DNA of 64,000 nt from an uncultured Thiomicrospira sp. (GTDB taxonomy: Bacteria > Pseudomonadota > Gammaproteobacteria > CAKMZV01). The stretch lies in assembly GCA_965195345.1 (NCBI GenBank), contig OZ239628.1, positions 608,001-672,000 of the forward strand. Reading direction: 5' to 3'. The position numbers were made by a program, and so were the translations under genes. The notes beneath the pieces are model-generated. The model ran no database searches, was not told where the DNA came from, and was given only the letters and a program-made list of their open reading frames with translations. Shown piece after piece: positions 11,691 through 46,818 of this stretch (the first letter of the stretch is position 1; each line of letters starts with the position of its first letter).

Positions 11691-11719
11691 TTGCTTGTTT
11701 TTCTGCCATTCTCTAAATT
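11691..11719 (+). promoter_or_regulatory. Putative sigma70 promoter of uup (probably leaderless)
   Basis: TTGCTT-N17-TAAATT, 6 nt before the ATG at 11726, no SD. Confidence 0.5.
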
Positions 11720-11725
11720 ACCACT

Positions 11726-17807: not shown

Positions 17808-17846
17808 CAGAATAGTATTCCCATAATCAATAAGGAACATTTAATA

Positions 17847-19298
17847 ATGAGTAAGCAAGTTTTTTCCGCCAAACGACCTGATTTTGATCCACTGCTAAAA
17901 AGGATTACGGACTATGTAACTTCATTTGACGTTAGTCAGTCAAAATTAGCAATGGAAACGGCACGGTATTGTTTAATGGATTCCATCGGTACTGCTTTTA
18001 TGGCTTTGAAATACCCAGCATGTACCAAAATGCTGGGTCCAGTTGTACCTGGTGCGCAAATGACGGATGGTGCAAAGGTTCCAGGAACTTCGTACCGTCT
18101 TGACCCTGTGCAGGCAGCGTTTAATTTCGGTGCTATGATTCGTTGGCTTGATTTCAATGATACATGGTTGGCTGCTGAATGGGGACATCCTTCAGACAAT
18201 CTTGGCGGTATATTGATGGTGGCCGATTATGTGAGCAGACGCAATCTCAATAACGGGAAAAGTCCGTTGACAATGAAGGATGTGCTTGAGGGAATGATTA
18301 AGGCGCATGAAATTCAAGGTGTTCTCGCATTGCAAAATAGTTTCAATCGCGTAGGTTTAGATCACGTTATGCTCGTGAGGATAGCAACTGCTCCAGTGGT
18401 TTCAAAAATGCTAGGCAACACGGATGAACAAACACTTAATGTTGTATCGCATACTTGGATTGACGGGTCTTCTTTGCGAACGTATCGTCACGCTCCCAAT
18501 ACTGGTTCACGTAAAAGTTGGGCGGCAGGAGATGCTACTGCTAGAGCGGTGCGTTTAGCGCTCATCGGAGGCACTGGCGAGATGGGATATCCTGCTGCAT
18601 TGAGCGTGCCTGTTTGGGGATTTCAAGATGTCTTATTTAAGGGTAAGGAATTGCAGATGGAGCGCGATTTTTCTACGTACGTGATGGAAAATGTTTTATT
18701 TAAGATTTCTTTCCCTGCAGAATTTCATGCCCAAACCGCCGTTGAAGCAGGCGTTAAACTACATCCATCCGTTGTTGGGCGGATAGATGATGTTGATCGC
18801 ATAGTGATTGAGACTCAAGAGTCAGGTCAACGAATTATTAACAAAACAGGAAAGCTAGATAATCCTGCCGATCGAGATCACTGCATTCAATACATGGTGG
18901 CGATTTCTTTGATTAAAGGCGATTTGACAGCTGAAGATTATGAAGATGTGGTTGCTAATGATGTTCGGGTGGATGCGCTGCGTGATAAGATGGAAGTGAA
19001 AGAGGTTCAGAAATACACCAAAGATTACATGGATCCGAGCAAGCGTTATATAGGTAATGCGGTACAAGTCTTCTTTAAAGATGGTACAAGCACTGAACGC
19101 GTTGAGATTAATTACCCAATTGGGCATCGTTTACGTCGAGAAGAAGGAATTCCTGTTCTTTGTGATAAGTTCACCAGAAATCTTGCTGGTCATCTAAGTG
19201 CTTACCGATGCTCTAAAATTGAGGAAATTTGTGCGGACCAGAATGTGTTGGAGTCCATGGCAGTAAATGAATTTGTTGATCTTTTGCATATGGGTTGA
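17847..19298 (+). CDS. prpD: 2-methylcitrate dehydratase
   Basis: [42 protein letters not shown]. Confidence 0.96.
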
Positions 19299-23499: not shown

Positions 23500-25731
23500 T
23501 TAAAGAGGTTTGATCTGGGTTTTCCGGTGAAACAATTGAACGACTGTTTCAGTGAGCAGAGGAATTTGTATGTATTCTCCTTTTTGCCAAAGTGGCACCA
23601 TGCTTAGATAGGATTCATTTTGCAACCAACCATCCTGTCCACCGAGTAATAGAAAATAATTGGAATCTACATCATTTAACTCACTTACAAATCGAGATTG
23701 TGAGCCGTAAAAAGATTCGTGTACATCATTTTCAAATTTATGATTACTCTTCAATATTGTATTGCGTGAGCCGCCAGTAGGGATGTTGGCAAATTTAAAC
23801 TGATTGCCAATCAGTGGTATCATTCCTGCAGGATGTTGCAACACAATTCGGTGAATATCGCCCCATGTATAACTAGGGTCAAGCCAAGATTTTGCAAACG
23901 AGACGATTAGTCGCAAAGTTTTTGCTTTTTTTGCCTTGCTTTGAGAGTCAATGTGCTGCAGCCATTTTTCTTTTACTAATCCATAACTGACGTAGATGTC
24001 TGTGATGTCAATTGGGATTTCTCCCACATCGAAGGATATTACCTCTCTAAAGCCATAAAGCATTGCTTCATAAGCAGGGGCTCCTTTTGAATTCAACGAA
24101 TAGTTTCCATCCCAATTTTTTAAGCGTTCTAATAACCACGTGTCAATATTATTTTTTTCAAGTCGCATAACGATTTCATCTCGAAAAAGATGATCTTCTT
24201 TGGAATACACATCAAGCTGCATGGCAGATAAATCTGAAATATTTACTTTCCCATGTTTTTTTATAAGAGAGGTTGCCCGATTAAAGCGTTGAGGATCAGC
24301 AAAATGCCATCCTATTGGCCAATCGGTAGATACAGTTGGTTTATTATTAGCAGATATTATATATCCGTCGGCTGGATTTTCAATATAAGGCAAATCACTG
24401 CTGTTGAAAAATGTCTTCCAATTATTTCGAGCTTCTTGCTCTGATATAAGCAGATTTGTAGGTTTACCATTTGAGCGTTTAGGTAGATGTGTGGCAAAGA
24501 CTTGACCAATGTTACCTTGATTATCTGCATAAAGGAAATTCTGTGGAGGTAAGGACCAACTTTCTAAAGCCTTTCTAAATTGAATAGGATTCTGTGATCG
24601 CATCATTTTGAGTCCTGCCGTCAACTCGTCTGAGACATGATGTCCCATCCATTTAATAGAAATTTGCGTTGTGGTTTCAAATAATGGGCTAATGATCGGT
24701 CCGTATTCGCTATCTTGTGCATCAAATATTTTTTCTCCAAAGAAACTTCCTCCTAATTTGTACCCTCTATCTTTCAAAATGGTTTGTGAAGATATTGCTA
24801 CTAAATCGCTAGTAGCTGCTCTCATATGTGTCCCGCTCCAAGCCAAGTGCGTATTGCGCCCAAACGCAAAAATTGGGAAACCGGGAAAAGAAGCACCAAC
24901 AGTATGATAAGAAGGCGACTTCAAACCTCCGAGCACCCAAAAATTAGGTAGGCTGAAGCCAAGGTGAGGATCGGCTGCCATTAAAGCTGACCCGTTTTTA
25001 CTGCGTTTAGGAGCAATAGCCCAGGCGTTACTTCCTGACTTTGTCGGTTGAAACAAGATAGCTGCTGCTGCTTTCAAGCGTTGTGTCGCTTCGCTGACAT
25101 CTTCTTCATTTTGGTGTAACTCTTGCCAAATCTCTTGCCAAGAGGGTTTATTATAAATTTCAAGGAGTTGGAATTGACTCAACCAGTTAATATCAATGCC
25201 GCTTAATCGAGCCATGGTTATGCTGTCTATTGGTGACCATTGTTCATTTTCAATGTCAAAAAAAGCGAAGTCAAAAGGAAGAGGATGACTATTTTTGTAA
25301 TCGTTAATTCCTTGCACATATCTGTCTAACCATTGCTTTGAATCTGGTGGTAGGTGAGCGTAAATATCAGCTGATTTGCGACCCAAATCAAGTAGTTTTG
25401 TATAAGTGTCTACCTGATCGCCAAATTCAAAAACAAGTTCCTTAGCTCTACTTAAGGCTATACGTCGAATTGTTTCCATCTGACCAAGTCGCAAATGAGC
25501 GTGAACAGCACCGAGGGTATACGCTGCATCATCATCATTTTCAGCGACTATATAAGGAATGTTATGTTCATTCCAGTAAACAGTAACAGGGCTTTGTACA
25601 TTTCCTTTCCAATTATCAAACACTTGCAATCGCTCATCGCTTTTTTGAGGCTCTGGTAGCTCCTTGAGTAAAGAGCATGCACTGAGGCTCCAAAATAGAA
25701 AAAGAAAGGGCAATATTTTTTCAAAGTTCAT
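23500..25731 (-). CDS. Penicillin acylase / AHL acylase family Ntn-hydrolase lipoprotein
   Basis: Lipobox LSAC; G-SNAW nucleophile site, DPHL, NFLYAD, SANNK. Confidence 0.85.
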   Translation of the reverse strand: MNFEKILPFLFLFWSLSACSLLKELPEPQKSDERLQVFDNWKGNVQSPVTVYWNEHNIPYIVAENDDDAAYTLGAVHAHLRLGQMETIRRIALSRAKELVFEFGDQVDTYTKLLDLGRKSADIYAHLPPDSKQWLDRYVQGINDYKNSHPLPFDFAFFDIENEQWSPIDSITMARLSGIDINWLSQFQLLEIYNKPSWQEIWQELHQNEEDVSEATQRLKAAAAILFQPTKSGSNAWAIAPKRSKNGSALMAADPHLGFSLPNFWVLGGLKSPSYHTVGASFPGFPIFAFGRNTHLAWSGTHMRAATSDLVAISSQTILKDRGYKLGGSFFGEKIFDAQDSEYGPIISPLFETTTQISIKWMGHHVSDELTAGLKMMRSQNPIQFRKALESWSLPPQNFLYADNQGNIGQVFATHLPKRSNGKPTNLLISEQEARNNWKTFFNSSDLPYIENPADGYIISANNKPTVSTDWPIGWHFADPQRFNRATSLIKKHGKVNISDLSAMQLDVYSKEDHLFRDEIVMRLEKNNIDTWLLERLKNWDGNYSLNSKGAPAYEAMLYGFREVISFDVGEIPIDITDIYVSYGLVKEKWLQHIDSQSKAKKAKTLRLIVSFAKSWLDPSYTWGDIHRIVLQHPAGMIPLIGNQFKFANIPTGGSRNTILKSNHKFENDVHESFYGSQSRFVSELNDVDSNYFLLLGGQDGWLQNESYLSMVPLWQKGEYIQIPLLTETVVQLFHRKTQIKPL

Positions 25732-26717
25732 GATGTGAGGTAAGGTATAAGTTGTTCAATAGATAACCAAGAGTCTCCTTTAATTGTACCTTTGCATTGC
25801 CGATCTATTTTCTGAAGATGTAAAATGATTCTTTTCCATTTTTCAGGTGATCTATTGCGTGCGATACTTATTAATTCTTTTTCTCGAGCAGGCCACATAG
25901 GGATACCCTTAAACGCATTTTTAAGCGGTAAATGCAATATAAGACAATCTGATATTTTCCGAATTAGCTGCACCTCACGGCATAAAATACTACTGATGAG
26001 TATTGGCTCTATGCCTTCAAGACGAAGTGAACGGCAGATTCTTAATGCTTTATTCGGATTTCCTTTGAATAATTGGTTGCTGAGACCAAAAATGTTAAAT
26101 CGAGATTGATCTTGAGTGTTTTGATGCACTATTTCTTCCGTAATAACGTCATCTTCACAAAGCGATAAGAAATCAATTTCTTGTTGCAACGCGAGCAAAT
26201 TGCCTTCGCATAGATAAACCAATAGACGTACGGCACTGTTATCAAATTTCATTTTTTTTTCTTGAAAACGCTTGCTAACCCATTCAAGTTGAACTTGATG
26301 CGATGGTTCAGGGTGCTGAACATGACATCCTACACTTTCTAAATCTGCAACCCATGCGGTTTTTTTTGCCCACGAAGAGGTTGTTGAAGATGCGCTGAAT
26401 ATTAGAACTGTCGTTGTCGAGGCTTTTTTAATCAGTGATTTTATTTTTTTACTTCCCTCTCTACCTACTTTTCCTCCAGGCATCACTATTTTTAATAGTT
26501 TGTTATTGGTGAACAATGAATTGTTTGTCATTGCTTCTTCAACATCCTGCCAATTAAATTGGGCGGATAACATGAAATGATGTTTTTCGTATGTAGGGTA
26601 CAGTTTACCTATATTAGTGATGCTTTCTTCGATGAGCAGAGGCTCCATGCCACTGAGTAACCAGACAGAATTATTCTTTTTCAAATGGGAAGAAAGATTA
26701 TTCCAGTAGATTTTCAT
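25728..26717 (-). CDS. holA: DNA polymerase III delta subunit
   Basis: LSGMEPLLIEE, SLF, EGNLLALQQEI, LRLEGIEP, IDRQCKG; follows an lptE-like gene. Confidence 0.85.
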   Translation of the reverse strand: MKIYWNNLSSHLKKNNSVWLLSGMEPLLIEESITNIGKLYPTYEKHHFMLSAQFNWQDVEEAMTNNSLFTNNKLLKIVMPGGKVGREGSKKIKSLIKKASTTTVLIFSASSTTSSWAKKTAWVADLESVGCHVQHPEPSHQVQLEWVSKRFQEKKMKFDNSAVRLLVYLCEGNLLALQQEIDFLSLCEDDVITEEIVHQNTQDQSRFNIFGLSNQLFKGNPNKALRICRSLRLEGIEPILISSILCREVQLIRKISDCLILHLPLKNAFKGIPMWPAREKELISIARNRSPEKWKRIILHLQKIDRQCKGTIKGDSWLSIEQLIPYLTS

Positions 26718-27211
26718 TCCGCAACGCTGTTTTTTGAAATACTATTAAAATTTGATTTTTGTAGCCAGATAATTAACTGATTTGATAGTTCGCGATCCAT
26801 CTCTTCATTTAAACGATCAAGGAATAGATTGCTGTCAGAGTCTTCGGGGTATTGTCTGGAAGCAAACAATCTAAGTGTTCCATATTGAACGCCGTCTGCA
26901 TCAAGTACTGAAGCCATTGCGATTGTTTCATGCAGATAACGAAATGCAACTCCAGCAAGGTCTAAACCAATGATTCGGCGACGGCGTTGCGGGGTTTCGA
27001 TTGTGATTATACGTTGCAGAGATGTTTCGTTCTGTTGGTTCGTGTTAATCCACTGCTTGAGTGCATCACCTATGCGATCTCCACCCTCAACACTCCAGTG
27101 AAATCGGCTGAGGTTATTGTTTTTTTCAGGCAAGTTGAAACTGCAACTTACGATTGAACTGGTAATTAAAACCAGTAAGATCAGTTTTGAATTAAGTAGA
27201 AGATGAATCAT
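26714..27211 (-). CDS. lptE: LptE-like lipoprotein (divergent)
   Basis: Lipobox IVSC followed by SFNL; C-terminal EEMDRELSNQLI pattern; canonical position upstream of holA. Confidence 0.6.
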   Translation of the reverse strand: MIHLLLNSKLILLVLITSSIVSCSFNLPEKNNNLSRFHWSVEGGDRIGDALKQWINTNQQNETSLQRIITIETPQRRRRIIGLDLAGVAFRYLHETIAMASVLDADGVQYGTLRLFASRQYPEDSDSNLFLDRLNEEMDRELSNQLIIWLQKSNFNSISKNSVAE

Positions 27212-27249: not shown

Positions 27250-28707
27250 TTAAATATTAGAAAGTTCTAATTCAGTCATTTCAAGAACAGTTTTTACATC
27301 ACTGAATGCGATTTTTTCAGTACCGTAAATCTGGTATTCTTCGTGCCCCTTTCCTGCTATTAGAATTATGTCTTCTTTTTTAGCGTGTTTGATGGCGAAA
27401 GCAATCGCTTCGAATCGATCAGCTATTTCTTTAGCGGAAGGTACAGATGATAGTATGTCTTTTCGAATTTTTGTTGGATTTTCTGTTCTTGGGTTATCGT
27501 CGGTAATGATGACGTGATCGGAATATTTTTGTGCAGTTGCTCCCATCAGAGATCTTTTGGTTGAATCCCTGTCTCCACCGCATCCAAATACACACCAGAT
27601 TTTCCCGTTTAAGTGTTCACGAATAGTACTCAAAGCTGCCCTAAGAGCGTCGTCAGTGTGTGCGTAGTCAACGATAACATCTGCTGTGTTATCGCTGCGC
27701 AACCATTGCATTCGTCCAGGAATGGTTTTAAGGTGAAGGATTGTTTGTAAACATTGATCAAAACTTAACCCCATTTTCATAGAGCTGGTGATTGCTGCCA
27801 ATATGTTGTTTACCTGAAAAACGCCCATTAAAGACGTTTCTACAGGGTAGTTTGAGTCGCCATGCAGTATATTAAATCGTATGCCATGACTATGTGGTTC
27901 GATGTTATTTGCCTGCATTGTTGCGTTTGAATTGCAACCATATGTGGAAACATTGCTTAGTTCCTTTGCCCATAATTCGCCCATACCATCGTCAATATTT
28001 ATAACAGAATTTTTTGTTTTGTAGTTAGTGAAGAACTTTTTTTTAACTTGACGATATTGCTCTAAATTACCATGATAGTCCAAGTGATCAGAAGTGATGT
28101 TAGTGAGCGTTGAAACATCAAAATCAACACCTGCTATGCGCCGCTGCTCAATGCCATGCGAGGATACTTCCATTACGACGGCATCAGTCTTTTCAGCGAT
28201 AAATTCTTGCAGTTGTGTATGTAAACTTAGATTGTCAAGCGTGGTGAGTTGGCAAGGTTTGAGAGTGAATTTATTTTTTGTTACTGTACCGTTACCAAGC
28301 GTCCCAAGTAGACCAACTTTGTTATATTTTGCAAGTAGGATTTGAGCTGCAATCCATGCAGTGCTTGTTTTTCCGTTAGTGCCAGTAATTCCTAAAACAT
28401 GGAAGGGTAATTCTTTTGTGCTGAAAAAACGTTGATACAATTCTGGCAAGAAAGATTCGTCGCTGACTAGTTCTGGTATTTTTACAGAGATAATCTGGTT
28501 GTCTGGAGAGGTAATGTCACTTATTACAGCAACTGCACCGTTGGCTAAGGCATTGTAATAATACTGCATTCCATGATTACCATTTGATAGCGGCAATGCA
28601 ATGTAACACCAGTTTTTTTTTATTTCCCGGGAATCGTTGGCAATCCCTTGAATGTTAACGGGTTGATTTGTGATTACTTTATCAAGCCAGTCATTTAAGT
28701 TTGGCAT
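27250..28707 (-). CDS. murE: UDP-MurNAc-tripeptide synthetase (mDAP-adding)
   Basis: GITGTNGKTS, MEVSSH, DHLDYH, DYAH, GCGGDRD, DNPR (mDAP), AGKGHE. Confidence 0.96.
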   Translation of the reverse strand: MPNLNDWLDKVITNQPVNIQGIANDSREIKKNWCYIALPLSNGNHGMQYYYNALANGAVAVISDITSPDNQIISVKIPELVSDESFLPELYQRFFSTKELPFHVLGITGTNGKTSTAWIAAQILLAKYNKVGLLGTLGNGTVTKNKFTLKPCQLTTLDNLSLHTQLQEFIAEKTDAVVMEVSSHGIEQRRIAGVDFDVSTLTNITSDHLDYHGNLEQYRQVKKKFFTNYKTKNSVINIDDGMGELWAKELSNVSTYGCNSNATMQANNIEPHSHGIRFNILHGDSNYPVETSLMGVFQVNNILAAITSSMKMGLSFDQCLQTILHLKTIPGRMQWLRSDNTADVIVDYAHTDDALRAALSTIREHLNGKIWCVFGCGGDRDSTKRSLMGATAQKYSDHVIITDDNPRTENPTKIRKDILSSVPSAKEIADRFEAIAFAIKHAKKEDIILIAGKGHEEYQIYGTEKIAFSDVKTVLEMTELELSNI

Positions 28708-30514
28708 GAAGTACGTATTCCTCTTTTTCTACATATGGATGGATTCCAAGTATACGAACTAGCTGGGGAATAGTTTTACCAAAAATGGGTGCCGCTGAAT
28801 CACCACCGTAATAAAGCTCTTCTTCTTTGGAATGTTCAATGGTTATTAGCATTACAAGCTGGGGATCTTCTGCTGGTATCATACCTGCAAAAAAAGCTCT
28901 ATAAAAGAACTGTCCATCTTTTTTAAATCTTACTGTTCCTGTTTTCCCTGCCACTGTGAAACCGTTTACTCTTGCTAAGGGTGCGGTTCCATCTGATTTA
29001 GTAACCTCTGTCATCGCATTTCGTAGTTTTATTATATTTTCAGCTTTTGCTACGTTCTTACGGCTTGTATCAGGAATTGCATGTTCCCATATGTGTGGTG
29101 AAGGAATATCTCCATCGTTTGCAATTGCTAAATATAAGCGAGCTAAATCAAGCAAATCAAGCACGAACCCATATCCGTAAGTGCGTGTAATGAATTCAGC
29201 ATTTTTCCAAGAGTCGTAATGTTCAAGCGATGAAACGTCTGGCTCGGCAAAAGAGTGGATGGGGTTTGTTTTACCCCAGCCAAGTATTTTATGCATTTGC
29301 CATATATTTTCTTTCCCAGCAAGTATTCCAAGTTTCATGGCGCCAATATTACTTGATTTTTTCAATACTTCAGCTGGATTTAGAACGCCATAATGTCGAG
29401 GGTCTGTTACAGCATAACCACTTACGGTGGCTCGTTTATTTGCATTGATTGTTGTCGCCATAGAAATGACATTTGATTCAAGTCCTGCGAGAATAGTAGC
29501 TGGTTTTACGGTCGATCCGGGTTCAACTTTGTCGGCAAGAGCGTGATTGGTAAGATTTAATGCATTCCAAGTAGTAACGTCATTAGGATTGAAAGAGGGG
29601 ACTGAAGCCATTGCATAAACGGCTCCTGTTTTTGCATCGAGAAGAACGGCTGCAGCTGTTTTAGCTCTGTGTTTAATTAAAGCTTCCTCCAATCCTTTTT
29701 GGATGACAAATTGCGCACTCTGATTAATGGTTAGGCGAATATTTTTGCCGTTTATAGCAGCATTTGTGATTTGCCAGTCTATGATTTTTTTGTTATCAAA
29801 GGTACGCTCACCCGTCCAAATAAATTTTGAACTTCCATCTTTTGCAGCTAAGTGTTCACTAAACCACAGTTCACTCCCACCGAGCGCTTTGCCTCTTTTA
29901 TTCATAATACCAACGATATGCGTACCGGTATTAGAATTAGGATAAACACGTTTTTTATTGGATTCTATGTTAAAGCTGTAGATTCGATATTTCCTCATCA
30001 ATTGCTTTAATTTGCTGGAATTTTCAGGCGTTAATGAGTGTTCTATAGATAAATATTTACTCGTGGGCTTTTTCCTGGCATGCTCTTGCAAGTCTTTTTT
30101 AGCATTTAATAACGTGCTGGCTTGTTCCAAAAATTTCTTTCCATTATTTTCTATTTCAATTTTTTTGCTTTTTGAGTTCGCTTTTTCTTTAAGTCTATTG
30201 AGTGTAGCATTAAAAGTATTCGCATCGAAACCAACACTATAAGTGATGGCATTTCCAGCCAATAACACGTTATCTTTTGAATATATGTTGCCTCGCCATC
30301 CTTGGTGACTGCGTGAACGAGCAACAACTGAATCTCTGCGTTTACTCCAAGATTCGTCTTCCGTGTTTATTGTTAATTTAAGCCCTTGAAAACCAAGGAG
30401 TAAAACGCTAATTAGTATAAGGGGCCAAAATAGCAACAAACGCCATTTTGGGAAAATAAACGGTTCTGATTTATCAGAATGTATCGGGTCAATTTTCCCT
30501 TGATTTCTGATCAT
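28691..30514 (-). CDS. ftsI: Class B penicillin-binding protein PBP3
   Basis: N-terminal TM, RGNIY, EPGSTVK (SxxK), SSN (SxN), KTGT; between ftsL and murE. Confidence 0.9.
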   Translation of the reverse strand: MIRNQGKIDPIHSDKSEPFIFPKWRLLLFWPLILISVLLLGFQGLKLTINTEDESWSKRRDSVVARSRSHQGWRGNIYSKDNVLLAGNAITYSVGFDANTFNATLNRLKEKANSKSKKIEIENNGKKFLEQASTLLNAKKDLQEHARKKPTSKYLSIEHSLTPENSSKLKQLMRKYRIYSFNIESNKKRVYPNSNTGTHIVGIMNKRGKALGGSELWFSEHLAAKDGSSKFIWTGERTFDNKKIIDWQITNAAINGKNIRLTINQSAQFVIQKGLEEALIKHRAKTAAAVLLDAKTGAVYAMASVPSFNPNDVTTWNALNLTNHALADKVEPGSTVKPATILAGLESNVISMATTINANKRATVSGYAVTDPRHYGVLNPAEVLKKSSNIGAMKLGILAGKENIWQMHKILGWGKTNPIHSFAEPDVSSLEHYDSWKNAEFITRTYGYGFVLDLLDLARLYLAIANDGDIPSPHIWEHAIPDTSRKNVAKAENIIKLRNAMTEVTKSDGTAPLARVNGFTVAGKTGTVRFKKDGQFFYRAFFAGMIPAEDPQLVMLITIEHSKEEELYYGGDSAAPIFGKTIPQLVRILGIHPYVEKEEYVLHAKLK

Positions 30515-30797
30515 GAGGAATTGAGAATATTTTTTGTTTTTTTATGTCGGGTGTAACAATCATTTCATTTTTTTTTGCCCATTTATCAACTTTCGATAAC
30601 GCTGATAAAAAACCAAATTCAAGCTGATATTGTCTAACTTGCTCTGAAAGTTTACTTTCTTGGCTGAGTAATTTATGATGTGTATTTGTTTTATTACGGT
30701 ACTCATTAGCTACAAATACAATAGCAAACATTTGAATAGCAACTAAGCATAAAAGTCCCAACCAGAAAAACCAATTACGCTCTGTTGATTTGTTCAC
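30489..30797 (-). CDS. ftsL: Cell division protein FtsL
   Basis: Short cytoplasmic N-terminus, one TM, coiled coil with LE...L...KVD..A...M..P; directly upstream of ftsI. Confidence 0.75.
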   Translation of the reverse strand: MNKSTERNWFFWLGLLCLVAIQMFAIVFVANEYRNKTNTHHKLLSQESKLSEQVRQYQLEFGFLSALSKVDKWAKKNEMIVTPDIKKQKIFSIPHDQKSREN

Positions 30798-30806
30798 TGC
30801 CTTTTA

Positions 30807-32399
30807 TCAATCTTGTTGCGCGCGTTTCAATGAAGAATCAAAGATTGAGTTTGAGTTTACCCAATTTTCCTTTCGTTTCTCTTTTCTCTCTTTTTCAACT
30901 CTGTCGAGCACTATCGAATTATTTGTGCTTTCGTTCATATTTTCACTGTTTGCAGATCCTATGCGTTCTTCTACGGATTGAACGATGGATTGGTCATGAC
31001 TAATGCCAGTCGCAATAACTGTTATTTGAAGCTTATCTCCCAGATTTTCATCGGGCATCAAACAAATTTTCACTAATCCACCCTGAACATAATTACTCAA
31101 AATACTATTAACTTTTGCAATTTCTTTTTTACCAAATCGTCCGCGCAAATTAATCAACATGCTTTTAGCGACATCAAACTTTTGTATATCAATCAAAGGA
31201 TTGTTTAAAGCATCCATTACGGCTTGCTCAACCCTTTCTTCTCCTCGCCCTCCAGATTCGCCAATTCCTATAATTGCGCGTCCACGATGTTTGCAGACCG
31301 CTTTGAGGTCATTAAAATCAGCATTGAACATTCCGTGATTAGCCAATACTTCGTATACGCCTGATATGGAGTTTACCAACACTTGATGAGCGCTGCTCAT
31401 TTGCGTATGAAAATCATCAGCATCAATATGCTCAAGGTTATCGTTGGGGATGACGATAAGTGCATCACTGTATTTTTGTAATTCATCAAGTCCGTGATTA
31501 GCTCGTTCAGTTTTACCTTCAAATTCATAAGGCATGTATACAACACTGAATACGAGAATATCAAGATCGTTTGCAAGTTTTGCTACAACGGGTGATGATC
31601 CTGTTCCAGTACCTCCTCCCATGGAGGTTGAAAGAAATACCATGTTGGAATCTTTGAGAAATTCGCTGATTTGTTCTTTCTGTTCTTCAGCGTACCTTCG
31701 CCCTAACTCAGGGTCTCCACCAGCACCGAGACCATTAGGACCTAATTTAATATGTTTTGTAGCTTGAGTACGTTCAAGTGTCTGACCGTCTGTGTTTACG
31801 GCAATTGTTTCAAGATAATCAACGCCTGACTCATGAAGGAAATTTAAAGCATTACAACCACCACCACCAATCCCAATCGCTTTTATGATTGTATTCATAC
31901 TGTTATAAGGAGAAATTATTTTTGTCTCTCCTGCTTCGCTATCACGATTGATATTAGTTATCGAAGAACTAAATGAAGGTGCTTTATATTCTGGGTTCAT
32001 AATAAACTCCATGTTATTATTGTTAGTGACCTCTGCAAGAGGATGGTTTTGATTGGAATCGTTTTCGAAAATGACATCTTTACTTACATCAAGAAAATCC
32101 GTCCAAATAGGTGGATCTATTTCAATGGAAATAGCACTATTATCTGAAACGTTTAAATCTTGATATTCGTGATGATTGAGCCACAGCATTTCTTCTGAGA
32201 TCAACTCAAAAGGGGATGAGGAAACTGGAGCTAATGGTTTCTCTGATTTAAAACTAGACATATCATATGCTTTGTATACTTCTGCCGTATCTGGCAATAA
32301 ATATATTTCATCTTCAAATTGAGATGCAGACGGATTATTCATCATTGACATCAAAGAATCTGGGAATGATAGGTCATTAGCTGGTGTTTTATCGTACAT
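30807..32399 (-). CDS. ftsZ: Divergent FtsZ-family GTPase with long acidic N-terminal extension
   Basis: IGIGGGGCNA, NTD, GLGAGGDP, MGGGTGTG tubulin signature, IPND, NADFND (T7 loop), ITVIATG. Confidence 0.9.
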   Translation of the reverse strand: MYDKTPANDLSFPDSLMSMMNNPSASQFEDEIYLLPDTAEVYKAYDMSSFKSEKPLAPVSSSPFELISEEMLWLNHHEYQDLNVSDNSAISIEIDPPIWTDFLDVSKDVIFENDSNQNHPLAEVTNNNNMEFIMNPEYKAPSFSSSITNINRDSEAGETKIISPYNSMNTIIKAIGIGGGGCNALNFLHESGVDYLETIAVNTDGQTLERTQATKHIKLGPNGLGAGGDPELGRRYAEEQKEQISEFLKDSNMVFLSTSMGGGTGTGSSPVVAKLANDLDILVFSVVYMPYEFEGKTERANHGLDELQKYSDALIVIPNDNLEHIDADDFHTQMSSAHQVLVNSISGVYEVLANHGMFNADFNDLKAVCKHRGRAIIGIGESGGRGEERVEQAVMDALNNPLIDIQKFDVAKSMLINLRGRFGKKEIAKVNSILSNYVQGGLVKICLMPDENLGDKLQITVIATGISHDQSIVQSVEERIGSANSENMNESTNNSIVLDRVEKERKEKRKENWVNSNSIFDSSLKRAQQD

Positions 32400-33321
32400 G
32401 GCTGGTTTTTGATTGTTTTTCGAAAATGGTTAATTGAGCACTTCGAGCACGTGGGTTAATTAGTAGTTCTTCTTTGCTTGGAGTAACTTTTGTTATTTTT
32501 TTCATAACGATTGGCATATCGGGAACAGGAAGTCCACGAGGTATGTCAAAGCGGTTGTTAATCACTTTATGAAAATTTTTCACTATCTTATGTTCAAGTG
32601 AATGAAACGAAATGATAGCTAACCGGCCATTGTCTTGTAAAATCTCGTAAGCTTGTTTCAACACAGAATTCAAGGTGTTGATCTCATCGTTCACAGCAAT
32701 CCGTAATGCTAAGAATGAACGAGTGGCGGGGTGCTTTTTACGTTCTCTACGTACACAGGTGCTGATCAGATCAGCTAGTTCAAGTGTTGTTTCGAGACCA
32801 TTTTTATCTAATGAGTTTTTAATATGCGAAGCGATTTTTCTGGAATGCCTTTCGCCAGCATAATTCCAGAGTGCATCAGCTATTTGTTCCTCGGTATGTT
32901 CAATTAACCATTGACGTGCACTTATGCCAGCCTGAGGGTTCATGCGCATATCTAAAGGACCATCTTTTTGAAAAGAAAAACCACGCTGAGGATCATCCAG
33001 TTGAGGGGAAGACACCCCAGCGTCTAAAAGAACACCGCTAACGGTGCTGGCTACACGGTGGCTTTTTGCCACTTCTTCTAATTGTTCAAAGTTGCATTGA
33101 TGAAAGTGAAATCGTTCATCAGACAGAGATTGCTTTTTTGCGGTTTTTGCCGCTTCAGGATCTTGATCAAGTGCAATCAATTTTCCCTTACTATTGAGCA
33201 TTTTTAATATTGCCTTGGAGTGTCCGCCTCGACCATAAGTTACGTCTATATAACACCCGTCTGGCTTAATGTCTAAGTGTGTAATGACTTCAGATACCAT
33301 GATGGGACAATGCTCGCTCAT
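32389..33321 (-). CDS. rsmH: 16S rRNA m4C1402 methyltransferase
   Basis: TYGRGGHS, DAGVSSPQLD, RGFSF, PLDMRM, HPATRSF, ISFHSLE, NPRARSA. Confidence 0.97.
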   Translation of the reverse strand: MSEHCPIMVSEVITHLDIKPDGCYIDVTYGRGGHSKAILKMLNSKGKLIALDQDPEAAKTAKKQSLSDERFHFHQCNFEQLEEVAKSHRVASTVSGVLLDAGVSSPQLDDPQRGFSFQKDGPLDMRMNPQAGISARQWLIEHTEEQIADALWNYAGERHSRKIASHIKNSLDKNGLETTLELADLISTCVRRERKKHPATRSFLALRIAVNDEINTLNSVLKQAYEILQDNGRLAIISFHSLEHKIVKNFHKVINNRFDIPRGLPVPDMPIVMKKITKVTPSKEELLINPRARSAQLTIFEKQSKTSHVR

Positions 33322-33768
33322 TCATAACTTCAAGTTTGATAATACTTCAGGCAGGACAATATTCGCATCCAATGGCGCCAGTTCATCAGTTCCTGGGGCA
33401 CATAACTCGAAGCTATTTCCCATGCTTTTCATTTCCAATTCATTTGTAATATCTGCGTATTGAAGCAGAGGCGAAGGAACATGAATACGACCCGTGGCAT
33501 CAATTTTTGTTTCAGTGGCATAGCCTATGGTTCGACGCTTTATTTTGCGGACGATAGGATCGCCACTGGGAAGATCAATGAGCCCAGGTAATATTTCTTT
33601 TTGCCAATATGTAAAGGGGTACAAGAGCAATATTCTTTCAAAAATGTCTGCCGTTATCAACAATTTGGATCCTGACTCTTCTATCAAAATTTCTCGATAA
33701 CGGATAGGTACAGAAAAACGCCCTTTATTGTCGAGTTTTATTGAGGTTGGTCCGGGAAAATAATTCAT
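33322..33768 (-). CDS. mraZ: Transcriptional regulator MraZ
   Basis: Two DxxGR motifs (DNKGR, DATGR); first gene upstream of rsmH. Confidence 0.92.
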   Translation of the reverse strand: MNYFPGPTSIKLDNKGRFSVPIRYREILIEESGSKLLITADIFERILLLYPFTYWQKEILPGLIDLPSGDPIVRKIKRRTIGYATETKIDATGRIHVPSPLLQYADITNELEMKSMGNSFELCAPGTDELAPLDANIVLPEVLSNLKL

Positions 33769-35581: not shown

Positions 35582-36205
35582 CTATTTTGGTTGTTTAAGT
35601 AGCCAATCCACTAATCGAAATAATTGAGCGTTTCCACCAGCTTGATTAACTGAAGTCAAGTATTTCCCATTTACCAAAATATTTGGGACGCCAGATATTT
35701 GAGATTGTGTACTTAATTTTCTTGCTTTTTCAACGAGATTGCTGACAGTGAATCCTTTGTATATGTCTTCGAATTTTTTTTGGGAAATGCCAGCTGTTGC
35801 AAATAATCTAATTAAATCTTCTGATGATTTCAATCCCTTGCCTTTATGGATTTCGTTAAATATTTTATCGTGAAGCTGCTGCTCTACATTTAAGGTTTTG
35901 GCAGTATAGTAAAGTCTTGCAGACCAATCCCAACGCTTATTTGCGAAAGTAGCCGGTATAGGGTAGAAAGCAACGTTAGAAGGTTTTTTTCTTAACCAAA
36001 TTTTTATGTAAGGCTCGAGCTTGAAACAGTGAGGACAGCCATAATAAAAGAACTCAACAACTTCTGGACTTTTGCCATCACCTACATAGAGTGGTTTGTC
36101 AAGAATTTCAAAGTGTTCATATTCTTCCCAAGGTTCGGCTATAGCAATATTAAATATTGTGAGAGCGGTACTAAGAATAATGAGTTTTAAAACATTTTGT
36201 AACAT
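35582..36205 (-). CDS. dsbA: Thiol:disulfide oxidoreductase DsbA
   Basis: Signal peptide, EFFYYGCPHC, cis-Pro GVP, VNGKY. Confidence 0.92.
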   Translation of the reverse strand: MLQNVLKLIILSTALTIFNIAIAEPWEEYEHFEILDKPLYVGDGKSPEVVEFFYYGCPHCFKLEPYIKIWLRKKPSNVAFYPIPATFANKRWDWSARLYYTAKTLNVEQQLHDKIFNEIHKGKGLKSSEDLIRLFATAGISQKKFEDIYKGFTVSNLVEKARKLSTQSQISGVPNILVNGKYLTSVNQAGGNAQLFRLVDWLLKQPK

Positions 36206-37363
36206 CTAAAGTTCTCCGTAAGAATGTAATCCTGATAAAAACATATTTACTCCTATAAAAGCAAATAAAGTAACGAATAATCCAACAATAGCCCACCAAG
36301 CCATAAGCGCTCCACGCATGCCCTTGCTAAGGTGCAAATGAAGCCATGCGGCATAATTTAACCACACAATCAGTGCCCAGGTTTCTTTAGGGTCCCAAGA
36401 CCAATACCCTCCCCACGCTTCGGCTGCCCACATTGCGCCCAATACCGTAGCGATGGTAAAAAATGCAAATCCTAAAGCAATCGACTTATACATTAAATCA
36501 TGCATAAGATGTAACGATGGTAAGCGCTGCAACCACTGAGACTGCGGGTTATTTCTTTCCATGCGATCTACGATTAACCAAGCAACAGCAACCATAGCCG
36601 AAATAGCAAAGCAACCATAGCCAATGAAATTCGCAGGGACGTGAATTTTCATCCAATAAGAGTTTAGAGCAGGGACTAAAGGTTGAATGATATGTGCTTC
36701 ACGCTCAAAAGTGTACCATAGCAAGAATGCAACGGCAGATGCAATAATTAGAGAAACAAAAAAACCTAAACGGTAGGTGTTATATTTACGCTGGTAGTGT
36801 AGATATATAAGAGCCGTAATCAAACAGAAAAGAATAAATACTTCATATAAACTGCTTACTGGGATATGACCGATTTGCACATCAATCAAATAGGATTCGT
36901 GCCAACGTACCAGTAAACCATTCATCCCCATAGCGGTTGCACACCAAAGCATTGCAGTTGCTGTTTGGTCGGCAAATCGAGAATCCTTTAATAACCCAAT
37001 TAGGTATGTGAAGCAACCGATAACATACAAAACACTCATCCACATTACTGAAGACTGGCTAGCTAGAAAGTATTTTAGAAAAAACGATTCAGTTGCAAGA
37101 TCCAACTTTCCGTCATATAAATTAATACTAATAAGGGCTATAGCACCAACGGATATTACAAAATTCCGCAATGATTTTTCTTTATGGCCAATATATCCAA
37201 TAATTAAGGTAGTTCCTATGAATATGCCTACTTCATAGGTGTCCATTTGATTGTAATATTGCATTAATCCCAAAAAAAATGCGATAGACAGGATGCTAAA
37301 CCATAGTAGGCTTTGCCACATTTCTAAAAAATTGGGAAATTTAGTGAGAATTTTATTGTTCAT
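36206..37363 (-). CDS. ccsA: System II cytochrome c biogenesis protein CcsA/ResC (called CcsB in beta-proteobacteria)
   Basis: WWD motif WGGYWSWDPKETW, HIPVSSLYE, WMKIHV, GLHSY. Confidence 0.93.
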   Translation of the reverse strand: MNNKILTKFPNFLEMWQSLLWFSILSIAFFLGLMQYYNQMDTYEVGIFIGTTLIIGYIGHKEKSLRNFVISVGAIALISINLYDGKLDLATESFFLKYFLASQSSVMWMSVLYVIGCFTYLIGLLKDSRFADQTATAMLWCATAMGMNGLLVRWHESYLIDVQIGHIPVSSLYEVFILFCLITALIYLHYQRKYNTYRLGFFVSLIIASAVAFLLWYTFEREAHIIQPLVPALNSYWMKIHVPANFIGYGCFAISAMVAVAWLIVDRMERNNPQSQWLQRLPSLHLMHDLMYKSIALGFAFFTIATVLGAMWAAEAWGGYWSWDPKETWALIVWLNYAAWLHLHLSKGMRGALMAWWAIVGLFVTLFAFIGVNMFLSGLHSYGEL

Positions 37364-39273
37364 TTTTTGTTTTTAAACCAAGTGCGTATAATATCAAATT
37401 CTTGCTGTTTTTCCAAGCGATTTTTTATGCCTTCTATAGCAAATATTGAATAATCAGGCTTTAATATCATCCAAAAACGAGCGCGGCGGACATAAAATAA
37501 AATGAAAACCCCTAAAATTAGCATGATGCATCCAATGTATACGATGGGTTTTCCAGGAGCTCTCGTCATTTGTAACCCTGAGGATTGAATCTGTTTAAAG
37601 GACTTAAGTTGTAGAAAAACAGGATCAGGGTAATAAGATAGTACTGAAATTGCAAAAATAGCATCGTCAAAAAATAAAGAGTCTTCTTCGCTTAACTCGA
37701 GGGCGAATATATTTTCATGCTCTTGTAATGTTTGAATAAAAATGCTACTAAGAGATAGTTTTAATAAGTCTAATACGGTAGTTTCTATTTGTTGGCGCCT
37801 CGTTTGATCTGGGAGTGCGTCGAGATAACTTTGGATGCCTGTAAATCCGCTGCGGGCAAAAACCTGCACTAAATTCATTACAAACTGTTGTTGTTTCCTT
37901 AATTCGGGGTCAGTGACGCTTTCGTCAATGAAATGTGTTCTCAAATAGTTGTCGTTTCGAAGTCGGTGCAAAAAATGCATAAACCGATTCGGAGAGTACT
38001 TTTTGTCTGCTGGGATGTATAAGTATTGAAAAGGATCACTTAGCTGTTGTCGTACACCGCTAAGGAAAAACCGTCGCCCTTCGCGCTCAATGGGTAGCAT
38101 GAAGTTTTCATACTCTCTTGCTTGTCCGTCCGGACTTCTCAACTTAAAGCGAAAACTTGGTCCATTGTTATGCGTTTTATTTCCATCGATACCCCCTTGG
38201 ATATTCAATAATCGAAAATCATCCATTTCTAAAGTTAATCGGGTGCCGTCGAGTGGTTCCTCTTCATGCACAGCTATTTTTAAGGAACCTGTGGCTTCAG
38301 TAACTAAGCTCCAAATTTTAAGATCTATCAATGAACCCCCATCGCCAAAGCTGGATTGATATATTGCAATGCCATCAACAATTAATGGTTCGTTTACTCC
38401 GATAGTTGCTGTCGAACGTAGTTGCTTTTTAAGGTCATACACTTCCAATTTGCTTTTAAAAGCTTTGGGTTGACCTGTTGGATAGTATTCAACATTAAAG
38501 TCTTTGACTTTAATATGAAAGGGCAATTTTTGGACAAAATAGCCATCTTTCCAAGGCAGGAAAAGTACGTTAGCAGAACGCCCTTCTGGAATATCAACGC
38601 TACCTCGAAATGCCATGTTGTCACTATTAATCCAAGCAGAGTCAGCAATTTCATCGAGTGGTAGATTGCGAGTCTCGGCGACTAATTGACCAGTTAATGC
38701 TTTCCATTTTGTAGGGATAGCACTATCGTATATAGCTCCAAGGCAAATAACTACAACACCCAAATGAGTAAGAAAGTAACCAATGCGGTTGTAGCGTCCT
38801 TTGACGGCGCTCAAATATTGGATGTTGTCGCCTTGCTTTAGGCGTGTTTTGTAGCCGCTCTTCGTTAGCTTTTTAGTATAGAAATCAACGCTTTGTTGCA
38901 TTCCAAAACTTTCATTGTGCCAGCGCATCGTGCGCAATTGATCAATTGATCGGTTTTGATTGGAAATACGCATTTCACGAAGAAATGTAAAACTATTGCG
39001 TTTGATGCACAGTGTTGTGGATAAAATCAAAAAGGCAAGAACGGTAAAAAACCACCATGCACTGTACACATCGTAAAGACCCAATAGTTTGTAAACTTCA
39101 AACCAAAAGGGACCAAACTTTAATGAATAGTCTGACCATGGTTCATTCTGTTTAATGAAAGTACCAATAGTTGACGCCACTGCAAGCATTACTAGCAATG
39201 TTATAGCTAAATCCATGGAACCTATAAAGGCGGATAAGCGTTGTTTCATTGAATGGAAGGAAATGTGATTCAT
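37360..39273 (-). CDS. resB: System II cytochrome c biogenesis protein ResB/Ccs1
   Basis: SMDLAITLL...ASTIGT, VYSAWWF, conserved TM His (LTHLG), VNEPL, YQSSF, SGLQMTRAPG. Confidence 0.92.
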   Translation of the reverse strand: MNHISFHSMKQRLSAFIGSMDLAITLLVMLAVASTIGTFIKQNEPWSDYSLKFGPFWFEVYKLLGLYDVYSAWWFFTVLAFLILSTTLCIKRNSFTFLREMRISNQNRSIDQLRTMRWHNESFGMQQSVDFYTKKLTKSGYKTRLKQGDNIQYLSAVKGRYNRIGYFLTHLGVVVICLGAIYDSAIPTKWKALTGQLVAETRNLPLDEIADSAWINSDNMAFRGSVDIPEGRSANVLFLPWKDGYFVQKLPFHIKVKDFNVEYYPTGQPKAFKSKLEVYDLKKQLRSTATIGVNEPLIVDGIAIYQSSFGDGGSLIDLKIWSLVTEATGSLKIAVHEEEPLDGTRLTLEMDDFRLLNIQGGIDGNKTHNNGPSFRFKLRSPDGQAREYENFMLPIEREGRRFFLSGVRQQLSDPFQYLYIPADKKYSPNRFMHFLHRLRNDNYLRTHFIDESVTDPELRKQQQFVMNLVQVFARSGFTGIQSYLDALPDQTRRQQIETTVLDLLKLSLSSIFIQTLQEHENIFALELSEEDSLFFDDAIFAISVLSYYPDPVFLQLKSFKQIQSSGLQMTRAPGKPIVYIGCIMLILGVFILFYVRRARFWMILKPDYSIFAIEGIKNRLEKQQEFDIIRTWFKNKK

Positions 39274-39438: not shown

Positions 39439-40872
39439 TCATTCGTAGCGCTGATCTGTCAGTGTATTTAAGAATGCAACCAGTGCATCTATTTGAGTAT
39501 CCGTTAAATTTCTCATGCCTAATCGCGTGTTGTCTACTGAAGCGGGAAATTCTGGGTTACCCCAAGGCTGTCCTGTTTCTGGATTATTTGGAATTCGATT
39601 GCGAGCAGCAGTGCCAGCATTCACATAAAATTGTATTACTGTACGCAAGCTTACAAACACACCGTTGTGCATGAACGGAGCAGTCACAGCTACATTTCGT
39701 AATGAAGGTGTTTTGAATCGTCCATCCAGATTCACATTGTTTAAAGTAGCGCCAACGCCTCTATCGGAAATGGCAGCAGGGTTAGCATTAGTTAGGGTGC
39801 TGTTGGTGGGTAAGCCAATATTGCGGTAGTTAAAGTTGGAGAAAGCTTGTTGTGGCGTGTTGGCATTGCTTTGCTCTGCAATATGACAACGTCTACAGCT
39901 GGTGGCATTTCCAAAAAATAAATTTCTTCCTTCTATCTCTTGCGCTGTAAGGGTTGCAGCTCCAGTTAAAGAGCGATCAAACTTAGAATCAAATGTGGAA
40001 AATTGCGTACTTTGACGCTCAAAATCCGCTATGACGGATGTTACTGCATTTAATGCTGTTAGTGTGCTGTCTAGGACAGTACTACCAAAATGTTCCCTAA
40101 GGTTGTTTACATAAATACTGTTTTCGTTGATTCGCGCAACAATCTCTTGCACATTAGGTAATTGCAATTCCACACTATTTGTAAAAGGCCCTGCTGCTTG
40201 GGCTTCTAAAGTGGCTGAACGACCATCCCAAAATTGTCCACCTTGAGGGTTATTGCCATTATTACTGAAAGCTGGAATTAGGTTTGCGTAATTTATGGAT
40301 GGACTGTTTCGTGTGCCTAAAGCTACACCATCTTGACCTATTGACACGGCTTTACCGATCACAGAATCGGTTCGAGTGTCAGAAAAAGCATGGTTTGCAT
40401 CGTGACAAGTAGCGCATGACTGCGTGCGATCGCGTGAGAAATTCACATCATTGAAAATCATTTCTCCTAAAACTGCACGAGATAGGATTAGGCTTGAGGA
40501 GGAGTTAACCGTAACATTGATAGTGTCAGTGCTGGTTATATTTCCATCGCTAACAACGAGCTGTATGTTGTAAGAACCAGATATATTTGGAGTAAACGAG
40601 GTATTTAGTGAAGTTGCATTATTCAGATTTACTACGCTTCCAGTAGGAGTGGAAATGAATGCCCAAGAATAAGTAAGTGTATCGCCATCAGGATCAGTGC
40701 TTAATGAGGCTGACAAAGTGATGGTTGCGCCCACGGTGGAACTTTGATCAAGACCTGCATTTGCAACAGGGGATTGGTTGCCGGTAGAAGTATTAGGCTG
40801 TTCGTTGCCTGTGTTGTTACCACAACCTGTTAAAAATATACAAATAAGTGTTGCTAAACTAAAATGACGCAT
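39439..40872 (-). CDS. Diheme cytochrome c peroxidase/MauG-family lipoprotein with N-terminal PKD/Ig-like domain
   Basis: Lipobox LTGC; PVANAG.DQ...SDPDGD.LTYSW-type Ig domain; CATCH and CRRCH; QFWDGR; FKTPSLRNV, PFMHNG; NPETGQPWG...LTDQRYE. Confidence 0.88.
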   Translation of the reverse strand: MRHFSLATLICIFLTGCGNNTGNEQPNTSTGNQSPVANAGLDQSSTVGATITLSASLSTDPDGDTLTYSWAFISTPTGSVVNLNNATSLNTSFTPNISGSYNIQLVVSDGNITSTDTINVTVNSSSSLILSRAVLGEMIFNDVNFSRDRTQSCATCHDANHAFSDTRTDSVIGKAVSIGQDGVALGTRNSPSINYANLIPAFSNNGNNPQGGQFWDGRSATLEAQAAGPFTNSVELQLPNVQEIVARINENSIYVNNLREHFGSTVLDSTLTALNAVTSVIADFERQSTQFSTFDSKFDRSLTGAATLTAQEIEGRNLFFGNATSCRRCHIAEQSNANTPQQAFSNFNYRNIGLPTNSTLTNANPAAISDRGVGATLNNVNLDGRFKTPSLRNVAVTAPFMHNGVFVSLRTVIQFYVNAGTAARNRIPNNPETGQPWGNPEFPASVDNTRLGMRNLTDTQIDALVAFLNTLTDQRYE

Positions 40873-45437: not shown

Positions 45438-45447
45438 GGACAAAGTA

Positions 45448-46785: not shown

Positions 46786-46818
46786 GCATTAGAAATTGAA
46801 ATCAATTGAGGTGAATTA

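Follow-up and report, generated by a model that had tools for sequence, protein, structure and literature searches.

An FtsZ-family gene with an N-terminal extension between rsmH and ftsL in a truncated division and cell wall cluster of an uncultured Thiomicrospira sp.

Between rsmH and ftsL, in a truncated division and cell wall (dcw) operon of an uncultured Thiomicrospira sp., lies a promoter-proximal gene for a member of an FtsZ subfamily with a disordered N-terminal tail. The gene is contained in a stretch of 64,000 nt (the window; GCA_965195345.1, contig OZ239628.1, positions 608,001-672,000) that makes up about 3% of a contig of 1,920,693 bp, and it is a real feature, not an artefact. 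Few features of bacterial genomes are as stable as the presence of ftsZ and its distal position in the dcw cluster. In our view there is an even chance that the window protein (P0001) is the lineage's own, vertically inherited FtsZ, which would have left its distal position in the cluster for the rsmH-ftsL slot and would have been strongly remodelled thereafter. Three aspects deserve attention. The gene order points to a natural move of ftsZ toward the operon's promoter-proximal end, and this move recurs in Thiomicrorhabdus. The FtsZ subfamily is very rare, carries a motif-bearing disordered N-terminal tail and ranges from members with intact to members with eroded GTP motifs. Finally, not only FtsZ but also the division proteins encoded beside it have diverged.

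The rsmH-ftsL slot in the window and in other genomes

The minus-strand run from 33768 to 27250 comprises six genes in the order mraZ-rsmH-ftsZ-ftsL-ftsI-murE, delimited from the list of open reading frames (ORFs) and named by Pfam and NCBIfam (Table 1). Starting from its ATG, ftsZ shares 11 nt with the end of rsmH (32389-32399), and its stop codon is separated from the start of ftsL by a gap of 9 nt (30798-30806), while ftsL and ftsI overlap by 26 nt and ftsI and murE by 17 nt. This arrangement, including both ftsZ junctions, had been described in a sequence-only reading of the window and was borne out by the ORF coordinates and by both collections of family models. The same reading had stated that the cluster is truncated, with no ftsA, ftsQ, ftsW, murF or mraY after murE. 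This also held when the window was scanned with Pfam: downstream of murE, a gap of 38 nt is followed by an ORF for a 165-aa lipoprotein, holA, a penicillin amidase gene and dnaG, and among 36 additional ORFs coding for 100 aa or more in the 64 kb no murF, mraY, murD, ftsW, murG, murC, ddl, ftsQ or ftsA was found. The remaining dcw genes are presumably located elsewhere in the genome. A second tubulin-family gene was likewise not found in the 64-kb window among ORFs of at least 100 aa.

To put the slot into context, RsmH of the window was used as a query against 185,579 species genomes. This search yielded 80 loci, nearly all from Gammaproteobacteria and with identities of 40-50%; the genome of the window itself and its relative of 2.1 Mb are not among them (best identity 50%). 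In 78 of the 80 loci, tblastn with the window proteins detected both rsmH and ftsI. The estimated spacing between these two genes has a median of 227 nt, which leaves room for ftsL. It is wider than 700 nt in only two loci, namely 1901 nt in L005 and 1948 nt in L012, and amounts to 1874 nt in the window. The same two of the 78 loci were the only ones with an FtsZ match between rsmH and ftsL. L012 is Thiomicrorhabdus cannonii HH3, L005 is the metagenome-assembled genome (MAG) DE12.002, whose FtsZ is nearly identical to that of L012, so that effectively a single genus is concerned. By contrast, the cluster of the E. coli K-12 reference follows the textbook order and has ftsQ-ftsA-ftsZ as its distal block. 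The arrangement is therefore as rare as the sequence-only reading had assumed, yet it is not unique to the genome of the window, since Thiomicrorhabdus possesses it as well. Its occurrence elsewhere, the extreme divergence of the protein and the long N-terminal extension had all escaped that reading. A paper describing the order rsmH-ftsZ-ftsL was not found, but the dcw survey published by Megrian and colleagues in 2022 may record such cases.

In both Thiomicrorhabdus-type loci the order is mraZ-rsmH-ftsZ-ftsL-ftsI-murE-murF-mraY-murD-ftsW, with ftsZ lying within 10913-12393 (L012) and 2377-3810 (L005). They share with the window the slot and the MraZ-type repeats upstream. They differ from it in that the cluster continues with murF-mraY-murD-ftsW and that ftsZ does not overlap its neighbours, being flanked in L012 by intergenic gaps of 140 nt and 95 nt. 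A further difference concerns the protein itself. FtsZ of T. cannonii (P0125, 415 aa) is canonical, reaches 391.8 bits with TIGR00065 (cut-off 295.2) and ends in the C-terminal sequence YLDIPAFLRRQAD; it is 37% identical to P0001. Its best 120 relatives are 73-98% identical; all named ones belong to Thiomicrorhabdus or Hydrogenovibrio and are annotated as "cell division protein FtsZ", and the other records among these 120 stem from unclassified MAGs or metagenomes. As far as can be judged from the sequence, nothing in the Thiomicrorhabdus protein looks accessory.

Domains, terminal segments and relatives of the protein

Sequence and structural model agree that P0001 is a full-length protein of the FtsZ fold, whose GTP-binding signature and T7 catalytic loop are intact. 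Both domains were recognized by Pfam (Tubulin, PF00091, 128.8 bits, cut-off 33, 4.1e-37; FtsZ_C, PF12327, 42.9 bits, cut-off 27, 6.4e-11). Besides the tubulin signature and the T7 loop (Table 1), the nucleotide-binding loops GIGGGG (residues 176-181) and NTD (202-204) occupy invariant or nearly invariant columns of the alignment. The AlphaFold2 model exhibits a predicted local distance difference test (pLDDT) value above 90 across most of residues 165-470. When it was compared to the PDB by Foldseek, FtsZ chains were matched at template modelling (TM) scores of 0.89-0.93 and root-mean-square deviations of 1.6-1.7 A, and the top 50 matches listed were all FtsZ. At the sequence level, CetZ and TubZ scored far lower against P0001 (43.6 and 21.7 bits). 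The core is followed by a linker at about residues 470-516 and by the terminal peptide. Co-folding of two cores (residues 165-470) with GTP and Mg gave a score of 0.00 and a mark of 0.42, which is evidence in neither direction.

The subfamily to which P0001 belongs is tiny. A search of 5.8 billion clusters revealed one close relative, P0002 (496 aa, 64% core identity), all other matches being near 40% identity and originating from many phyla. A profile of P0001 and P0002, searched against 1.84 billion representatives with an E-value limit of 0.001, retrieved 19,918 proteins, but within this set the subfamily is confined to three 50%-identity clusters, those of P0001, P0002 and P0370. The latter, a protein of 505 aa that scored 275.9 bits, is truly related and has both N-terminal motifs described below as well as the shared core substitutions. 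Common to the subfamily are, inter alia, the substitution S[VI]VYMP, a short linker and an Asp at the end of the C-terminal peptide. In P0370, however, the nucleotide-binding loops are eroded (GVDKMG for GxGGxG, DSQ for NTD, GLSCARDA for GLGAGGDP and LGRGVGSG for MGGGTGTG), while the Asp residues of T7 are kept. Judged by these loops, P0370 is a probable pseudo-GTPase FtsZ. Three further candidates, P0367, P0368 and P0369 (744-840 aa), which ranked directly behind the two queries and ahead of P0370, were rejected as subfamily members. They are fusions of two complete FtsZ units in tandem, connected by a Pro- or Gln-rich linker, and their scores were inflated by the presence of two domains. The contigs on which subfamily genes reside are of modest size: besides that of the window, 2.06-2.11 Mb for the P0002 cluster and 1,560,137 bp for P0515, a cluster mate of P0370. 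The 530-aa architecture of P0001 was also found in a second assembly, on a contig of 317 kb (P0121).

The N-terminal extension is predicted to be disordered except for a low-confidence helix at residues 65-75 of the AlphaFold2 model. Its residues 1-165 had no match in Pfam at E values up to 5 and no usable one in the ESM Atlas. Nevertheless, the segment is coding. Its codon-usage score is 0.26 in frame and between -0.16 and -1.30 in the other five frames, compared to 0.18-0.32 for the neighbouring genes. Among members of the 90% clusters, P0001 and P0121 differ by substitutions at six positions, all within the extension and none in the core, and P0002 differs from its variant P0123 at 35 positions (22 in the extension, 3 in the core, 10 in the linker); neither pair contains an indel. 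The possibility that the extension is an upstream non-coding stretch was ruled out by codon usage, by the shared motifs and by this indel-free variation.

Two motifs are embedded in the extension. The first one, for which P0001 and P0370 have the pattern [IL][YV]LLxDxAxV[YF]KAYDM in common, is lacking in P0002 as annotated. The second one, PFEL[IV], is common to all three subfamily members. The canonical FtsZ proteins P0477, P0490 and P0421 contain FEL[IV] at residues 2-4, and E. coli FtsZ starts with MFEP. The simplest reading is that motif 2 is probably a relic of an ancestral MFEL N-terminus that is now internal. The new stretch in front of PFEL[IV] would then comprise about 60 residues in P0001 and in P0370, but just 14 residues in P0002, and an insertion of some 60-110 residues separates the motif from the GTPase domain.

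At the other end of the protein, a conserved peptide of the D-I-P-x-F-L-R type binds FtsA and ZipA in Gammaproteobacteria; the C-terminal end of E. coli FtsZ is DYLDIPAFLRKQAD. In P0001 this peptide is recognizable but eroded. Within FDS-SLKRAQQD, Ser takes the place of a Pro that is otherwise 100% conserved, and the hydrophobic pair is changed as well, while the terminal R/K-x-Q-x-D of the window protein still aligns with the peptide of the gamma type.

Regulation, neighbouring proteins and origin of the gene

The sequence-only reading had suggested that ftsZ came under direct control of MraZ. Upstream of mraZ, three direct 10-bp repeats were identified (Table 1) that resemble in type and spacing those preceding E. 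coli mraZ (AGTGGGAAAT/TGTGGGGCAA/AGTGGGAATA); four GTGG boxes of the same type and spacing precede mraZ of T. cannonii. Such repeats bind MraZ, and those of E. coli were reportedly described as the MraZ operator by Eraso and colleagues in 2014. With mraZ as the first gene and GTGG-type direct repeats at a spacing of 10 bp, the window thus has the hallmarks of a mra operon, as read from the sequence. Since the genes from mraZ through murE are separated only by overlaps or by gaps of at most 9 nt, it is likely that they are co-transcribed from the mraZ promoter. The repeats and the tight packing make control of ftsZ by MraZ plausible at the level of sequence.

The genes surrounding ftsZ are unusual as well. 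Median identities, calculated against 71 other gammaproteobacterial loci, were lower for the window than for T. cannonii in the case of RsmH (47.8% versus 56.0%), FtsI (31.6% versus 45.4%) and MurE (38.9% versus 42.6%), and the family models gave 79.3 bits versus 152.6 bits for MraZ and 30 versus 65 for FtsL. For a protein outside of cell division, AceE, the picture is different. AceE of the window is 66% identical to its Thiomicrospira counterpart and has an ordinary branch (0.21) in a tree of three major groups calculated without an outgroup. Its nearest named relatives belong to Thiomicrospira and to Thiodiazotropha/Sedimenticola (65-66% each); further relatives are 79% and 70% identical. 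Between the window and the relative of 2.1 Mb, AceE is 79% identical but the FtsZ core only 64%. Because the AceE branch is ordinary whereas FtsI, FtsL, MraZ and FtsZ have diverged, the sequences indicate that the acceleration is concentrated in division proteins, in FtsZ most of all. Wall synthesis is probably active nonetheless, since FtsI keeps its SxxK, SxN and KTG motifs (STVK at 334, SSN at 387, KTG at 524) and MurE keeps DNPR (404).

The proposal that P0001 is the relocated primary FtsZ is favoured by several of these results. Thiomicrorhabdus has a canonical FtsZ in this slot, P0001 retains the complete architecture with relics of the N-terminus and of the C-terminal peptide of the gamma type, the division proteins encoded beside it have co-diverged and the genomes appear to be small. 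Under this proposal, transcription of ftsZ, the third cistron of a tightly packed block of six genes, would start at the mraZ promoter together with that of the septal synthase genes and would be controlled by MraZ. The remodelled FtsZ would still polymerise head to tail and organise septal wall synthesis, and FtsZ, FtsI, FtsL and MraZ would have diverged together in this lineage. The disordered N-terminal tail with its two short motifs may supply a partner or tethering contact that compensates for the eroded C-terminal peptide. A common origin of the slot in the window and in Thiomicrorhabdus is possible from the sequences. An approximately unbiased (AU) test on RsmH, FtsI and MurE did not reject a clade of the window with L005 and L012 (p 0.90), and constraining the tree to it raised the log-likelihood by 55 units over that of the quick free tree. 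However, since both branches are long, this grouping may partly reflect long-branch attraction. A union of FtsZ of the window clade with gammaproteobacterial FtsZ was likewise not rejected by an AU test (p 0.20).

On the other hand, a considerable number of observations weigh against the relocated primary FtsZ. The chief one is that a canonical ftsQ-ftsA-ftsZ block may exist elsewhere in the 1.92-Mb genome, as the search covered 64 kb (about 3%). The free RsmH, FtsI and MurE trees do not join the window with Thiomicrorhabdus; under both models they place it with the Akkermansia outgroup, accompanied by long-branch warnings, and its own branch is very long (1.5 and 2.76). In the FtsZ tree, which provides no reliable position, P0001 and P0002 share a very long stem and branch outside the clade of E. 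coli and Thiomicrospiraceae. FtsZ has diverged more than FtsI, and also more than MurE and RsmH. With 273.4 bits, P0001 remains under the TIGR00065 equivalog cut-off of 295.2 that T. cannonii FtsZ easily surpasses, it matches bacterial and archaeal (Methanocaldococcus) FtsZ in the PDB about equally (approximately 170-200 bits) and its identity to E. coli FtsZ (b0095) is 38.7%, compared to 58.6% for T. cannonii. In a comparison with 54 other FtsZ proteins (the 53 remaining alignment rows and E. coli FtsZ), the window protein or P0002 departs from 31 columns showing at least 85% agreement; these include two otherwise 100% conserved Gly positions at which P0001 and P0002 have the same replacement. 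Erosion of GTP loops, as seen in P0370, is more usual in accessory paralogues than in a sole FtsZ. Finally, promoter-like and terminator-like sites occur in the region at the level of chance (23 found versus 27.1 expected and 6 versus 6.4, respectively), so that no internal promoter of ftsZ is proposed, and the ATG at 32399 is not preceded by a recognizable Shine-Dalgarno sequence, with in-frame Met codons at residues 17, 19 and 20. For the latter reason, the exact start of ftsZ and hence the overlap of 11 nt are uncertain.

Alternatively, P0001 may be a second, specialised FtsZ, as already raised by the sequence-only reading. A canonical ftsZ elsewhere, probably together with ftsQ and ftsA, would then build the Z ring, while P0001, co-expressed with ftsL and ftsI, would modulate or localise septal wall synthesis or form another cytoskeletal structure via its N-terminal motifs. 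We regard this as the less likely but still serious explanation. It accounts for the extreme divergence with its very long stem, for the score under the TIGR00065 cut-off and the 31 departures from near-invariant columns, for the small number of subfamily clusters, for a member without intact GTP-binding loops and for the excess of divergence in FtsZ over FtsI, MurE and RsmH. Accessory FtsZ duplications are moreover documented in Hyphomicrobiales (PMC13732431). According to the same work, though, these paralogues are truncated GTPase duplications beside an essential full-length FtsZ, whereas the window protein keeps linker and C-terminal peptide. The canonical FtsZ in the Thiomicrorhabdus slot also speaks against a paralogue, as does the unusual divergence of the adjoining and presumably single-copy FtsI, FtsL and MraZ. 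Contigs of only 1.56-2.1 Mb make two ftsZ copies somewhat less likely, and the lack of a second tubulin-family gene in the 64 kb points in the same direction, a weak argument given the small share of the contig covered.

It is also conceivable that P0001 is a sole FtsZ in the course of being lost. The lineage would be shifting to a largely FtsZ-independent division, with the gene as a still-expressed remnant under weak or altered selection. The graded series from intact GTP loops in P0001 and P0002 to eroded ones in P0370, whose mate P0515 lies on a contig of only 1.56 Mb, fits this idea, as does the low conservation of the core compared to AceE between the window and its 2.1-Mb relative. As a possible parallel, division without FtsZ has been reported for the free-living 'Ca. 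Thioglobus autotrophicus' and other SUP05 genomes (PMC6509183), and Ruthia and Vesicomyosocius are listed as FtsZ-less (PMC4164004). However, the window protein has all its GTP-binding and catalytic motifs intact, and within the subfamily the N-terminal motifs are conserved. Core substitutions within clusters are few (0 of 6 differences for P0121, 3 of 35 for P0123), which suggests purifying selection on the core. Altogether, loss of FtsZ appears quite improbable to us. A more far-reaching scenario is unlikely as well. In it, P0001 would be the sole FtsZ of a small-genome gammaproteobacterial lineage that is rebuilding its divisome: ftsZ would have moved forward in the dcw operon to a position right behind mraZ-rsmH, the tail for FtsA and ZipA would have been exchanged for a disordered N-terminal one bearing two conserved docking motifs, and GTP binding would have been lost in the sister lineage of P0370, so that the subfamily would represent a living intermediate toward the FtsZ-less division of SUP05 and the clam symbionts.

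An artefact, be it a chimeric join or an ftsZ of canonical length with a spurious upstream extension, is very improbable. The missing Shine-Dalgarno sequence and a Met at residue 168, just before the core, might be taken as hints of the latter. But P0002 has Leu instead of Met before the core, and the extension codes in its own frame only, has motifs in common with P0370 and P0002, and shows up to 22 substitutions among P0002 variants without an indel or a stop. A chimeric join is contradicted by the coding sequence, which is continuous over both junctions (the 11-nt overlap and the 9-nt gap), by the identical 530-aa architecture in the second assembly and by the same gene order in two Thiomicrorhabdus-type assemblies.

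Compared to known systems, P0001 shares with canonical FtsZ (TIGR00065, E. coli b0095) the two-domain fold, GGGTGTG, the T7 loop and the linker with an Asp-ending peptide, and like E. coli FtsZ it is encoded in the dcw cluster downstream of mraZ-rsmH. What separates it from the E. coli protein is, in addition to the low identity, the gene position in the rsmH-ftsL slot instead of after ftsA, the extension of 165 aa and the eroded C-terminal peptide. With the accessory paralogues of Agrobacterium (FtsZ1, FtsZ3) and the duplicates of Bradyrhizobium it has in common a divergent GTPase domain that may tune division (PMC13732431). Yet those proteins are truncated and the window protein is of full length with added sequence, thus not a GTPase-only paralogue. 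The reduced dcw clusters of mollicutes (mraZ, mraW, ftsA, ftsZ) resemble the window in that ftsZ lies close behind mraZ-rsmH and FtsZ is divergent (bioRxiv 10.1101/2025.09.01.673419). There, however, the arrangement arose from the loss of wall genes in bacteria that lack a wall, and ftsA was kept, while in the window ftsZ is followed by ftsL, ftsI and murE and has no adjacent ftsA. A relevant paper on a divergent FtsZ with an N-terminal extension was not found. If P0001 is the sole FtsZ, the lineage offers a direct route to study the re-tethering of the Z ring, its rewiring to MraZ or its dismantling, questions otherwise approached only through lineages that are already FtsZ-less. If it is a second copy, it would be an accessory FtsZ of a new kind, full-length and with its gene beside ftsL-ftsI.

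Feature coordinates and the rest of the window

The features of the cluster are compiled in Table 1.

Table 1. Features in and around the dcw cluster; positions refer to the window.
Feature	Position	Strand	Remarks
Three direct 10-bp repeats TTTGTATTGA, TTTGTGGGAA, TTTGTGGTAA	33781..33810	-	end 12 nt before the mraZ ATG; candidate MraZ operator
mraZ, divergent	33322..33768	-	148 aa; PF02381 at 1.8e-13, two stretches; TIGR00242 79.3 bits, cut-off 98.35
rsmH	32389..33321	-	310 aa; TIGR00006 320.7 bits, cut-off 154.3
FtsZ-family gene (P0001)	30807..32399	-	530 aa; PF00091 and PF12327; TIGR00065 273.4 bits, cut-off 295.2
N-terminal extension, residues 1-165, disordered, coding	31905..32399	-	pLDDT about 30 over residues 1-164; codon usage
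Motif 1 in the extension, residues 32-47, IYLLPDTAEVYKAYDM	32259..32306	-	aligns with LVLLDDDAPVFKAYDM of P0370; unchanged in P0121
Motif 2, residues 63-70, PFELISEE	32190..32213	-	PFELIIEE in P0002, PFELVNNE in P0370
Tubulin signature GGGTGTG, residues 261-267	31599..31619	-	invariant columns in an alignment of 56 sequences; regular-expression check
T7 loop NADFND, residues 359-364	31308..31325	-	N359, D361, F362 and D364 invariant; catalytic Asp kept
Eroded C-terminal peptide NSIFDSSLKRAQQD	30810..30851	-	aligns with YLDIPAFLRRQAD (T. cannonii) and MYQQPTLMRKQLD (P0002)
ftsL	30489..30797	-	102 aa, GTG start; PF04999 at 6.3e-10; TIGR02209 30.4 bits, below cut-off 42.45
ftsI, divergent	28691..30514	-	607 aa; transpeptidase PF00905 at 5.8e-52
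murE, last dcw gene of the cluster	27250..28707	-	485 aa; NF001126 471.7 bits, cut-off 373
Lipoprotein gene where the dcw cluster stops	26714..27211	-	165 aa; signal peptide, lipobox IVSC
holA (DNA polymerase III delta)	25728..26717	-	TIGR01128 212.1 bits

The lipoprotein ORF next to murE gave no Pfam or NCBIfam match, with Pfam taken to E up to 5. We take it to be probably lptE, solely from its position directly before holA, a gene order known from other Proteobacteria. Upstream of the dcw cluster, dsbA adjoins ccsB and resB of the system II cytochrome c biogenesis pathway (35582-39273, minus strand), followed by a gene for a di-haem cytochrome c peroxidase with a PKD domain (39439-40872). 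A WD40 beta-propeller protein of 661 aa is encoded at 9483-11468 (minus strand); its best Pfam matches are WD40 families of the eukaryotic type. At the gathering score, no Rfam family, tRNA included, was detected anywhere in the 64 kb. A set of genes for the methylcitrate cycle (members of the PEP-mutase/isocitrate-lyase and citrate synthase families and PrpD) is located at 15811-19298 (plus strand), and complete 2-oxoglutarate and pyruvate dehydrogenase complexes are encoded at 2785-6825 and 42777-48582. Because of this set and both complexes, the gene content suggests a heterotrophic metabolism. The end of the window (56000-64000, minus strand) is occupied by a sugar-nucleotide/O-antigen-type cluster comprising genes for an RmlA-like protein, FdtA, a hexapeptide transferase, a DegT aminotransferase and a flippase, whose G+C content (0.34-0.375) is lower than that of most of the window (0.37-0.44).

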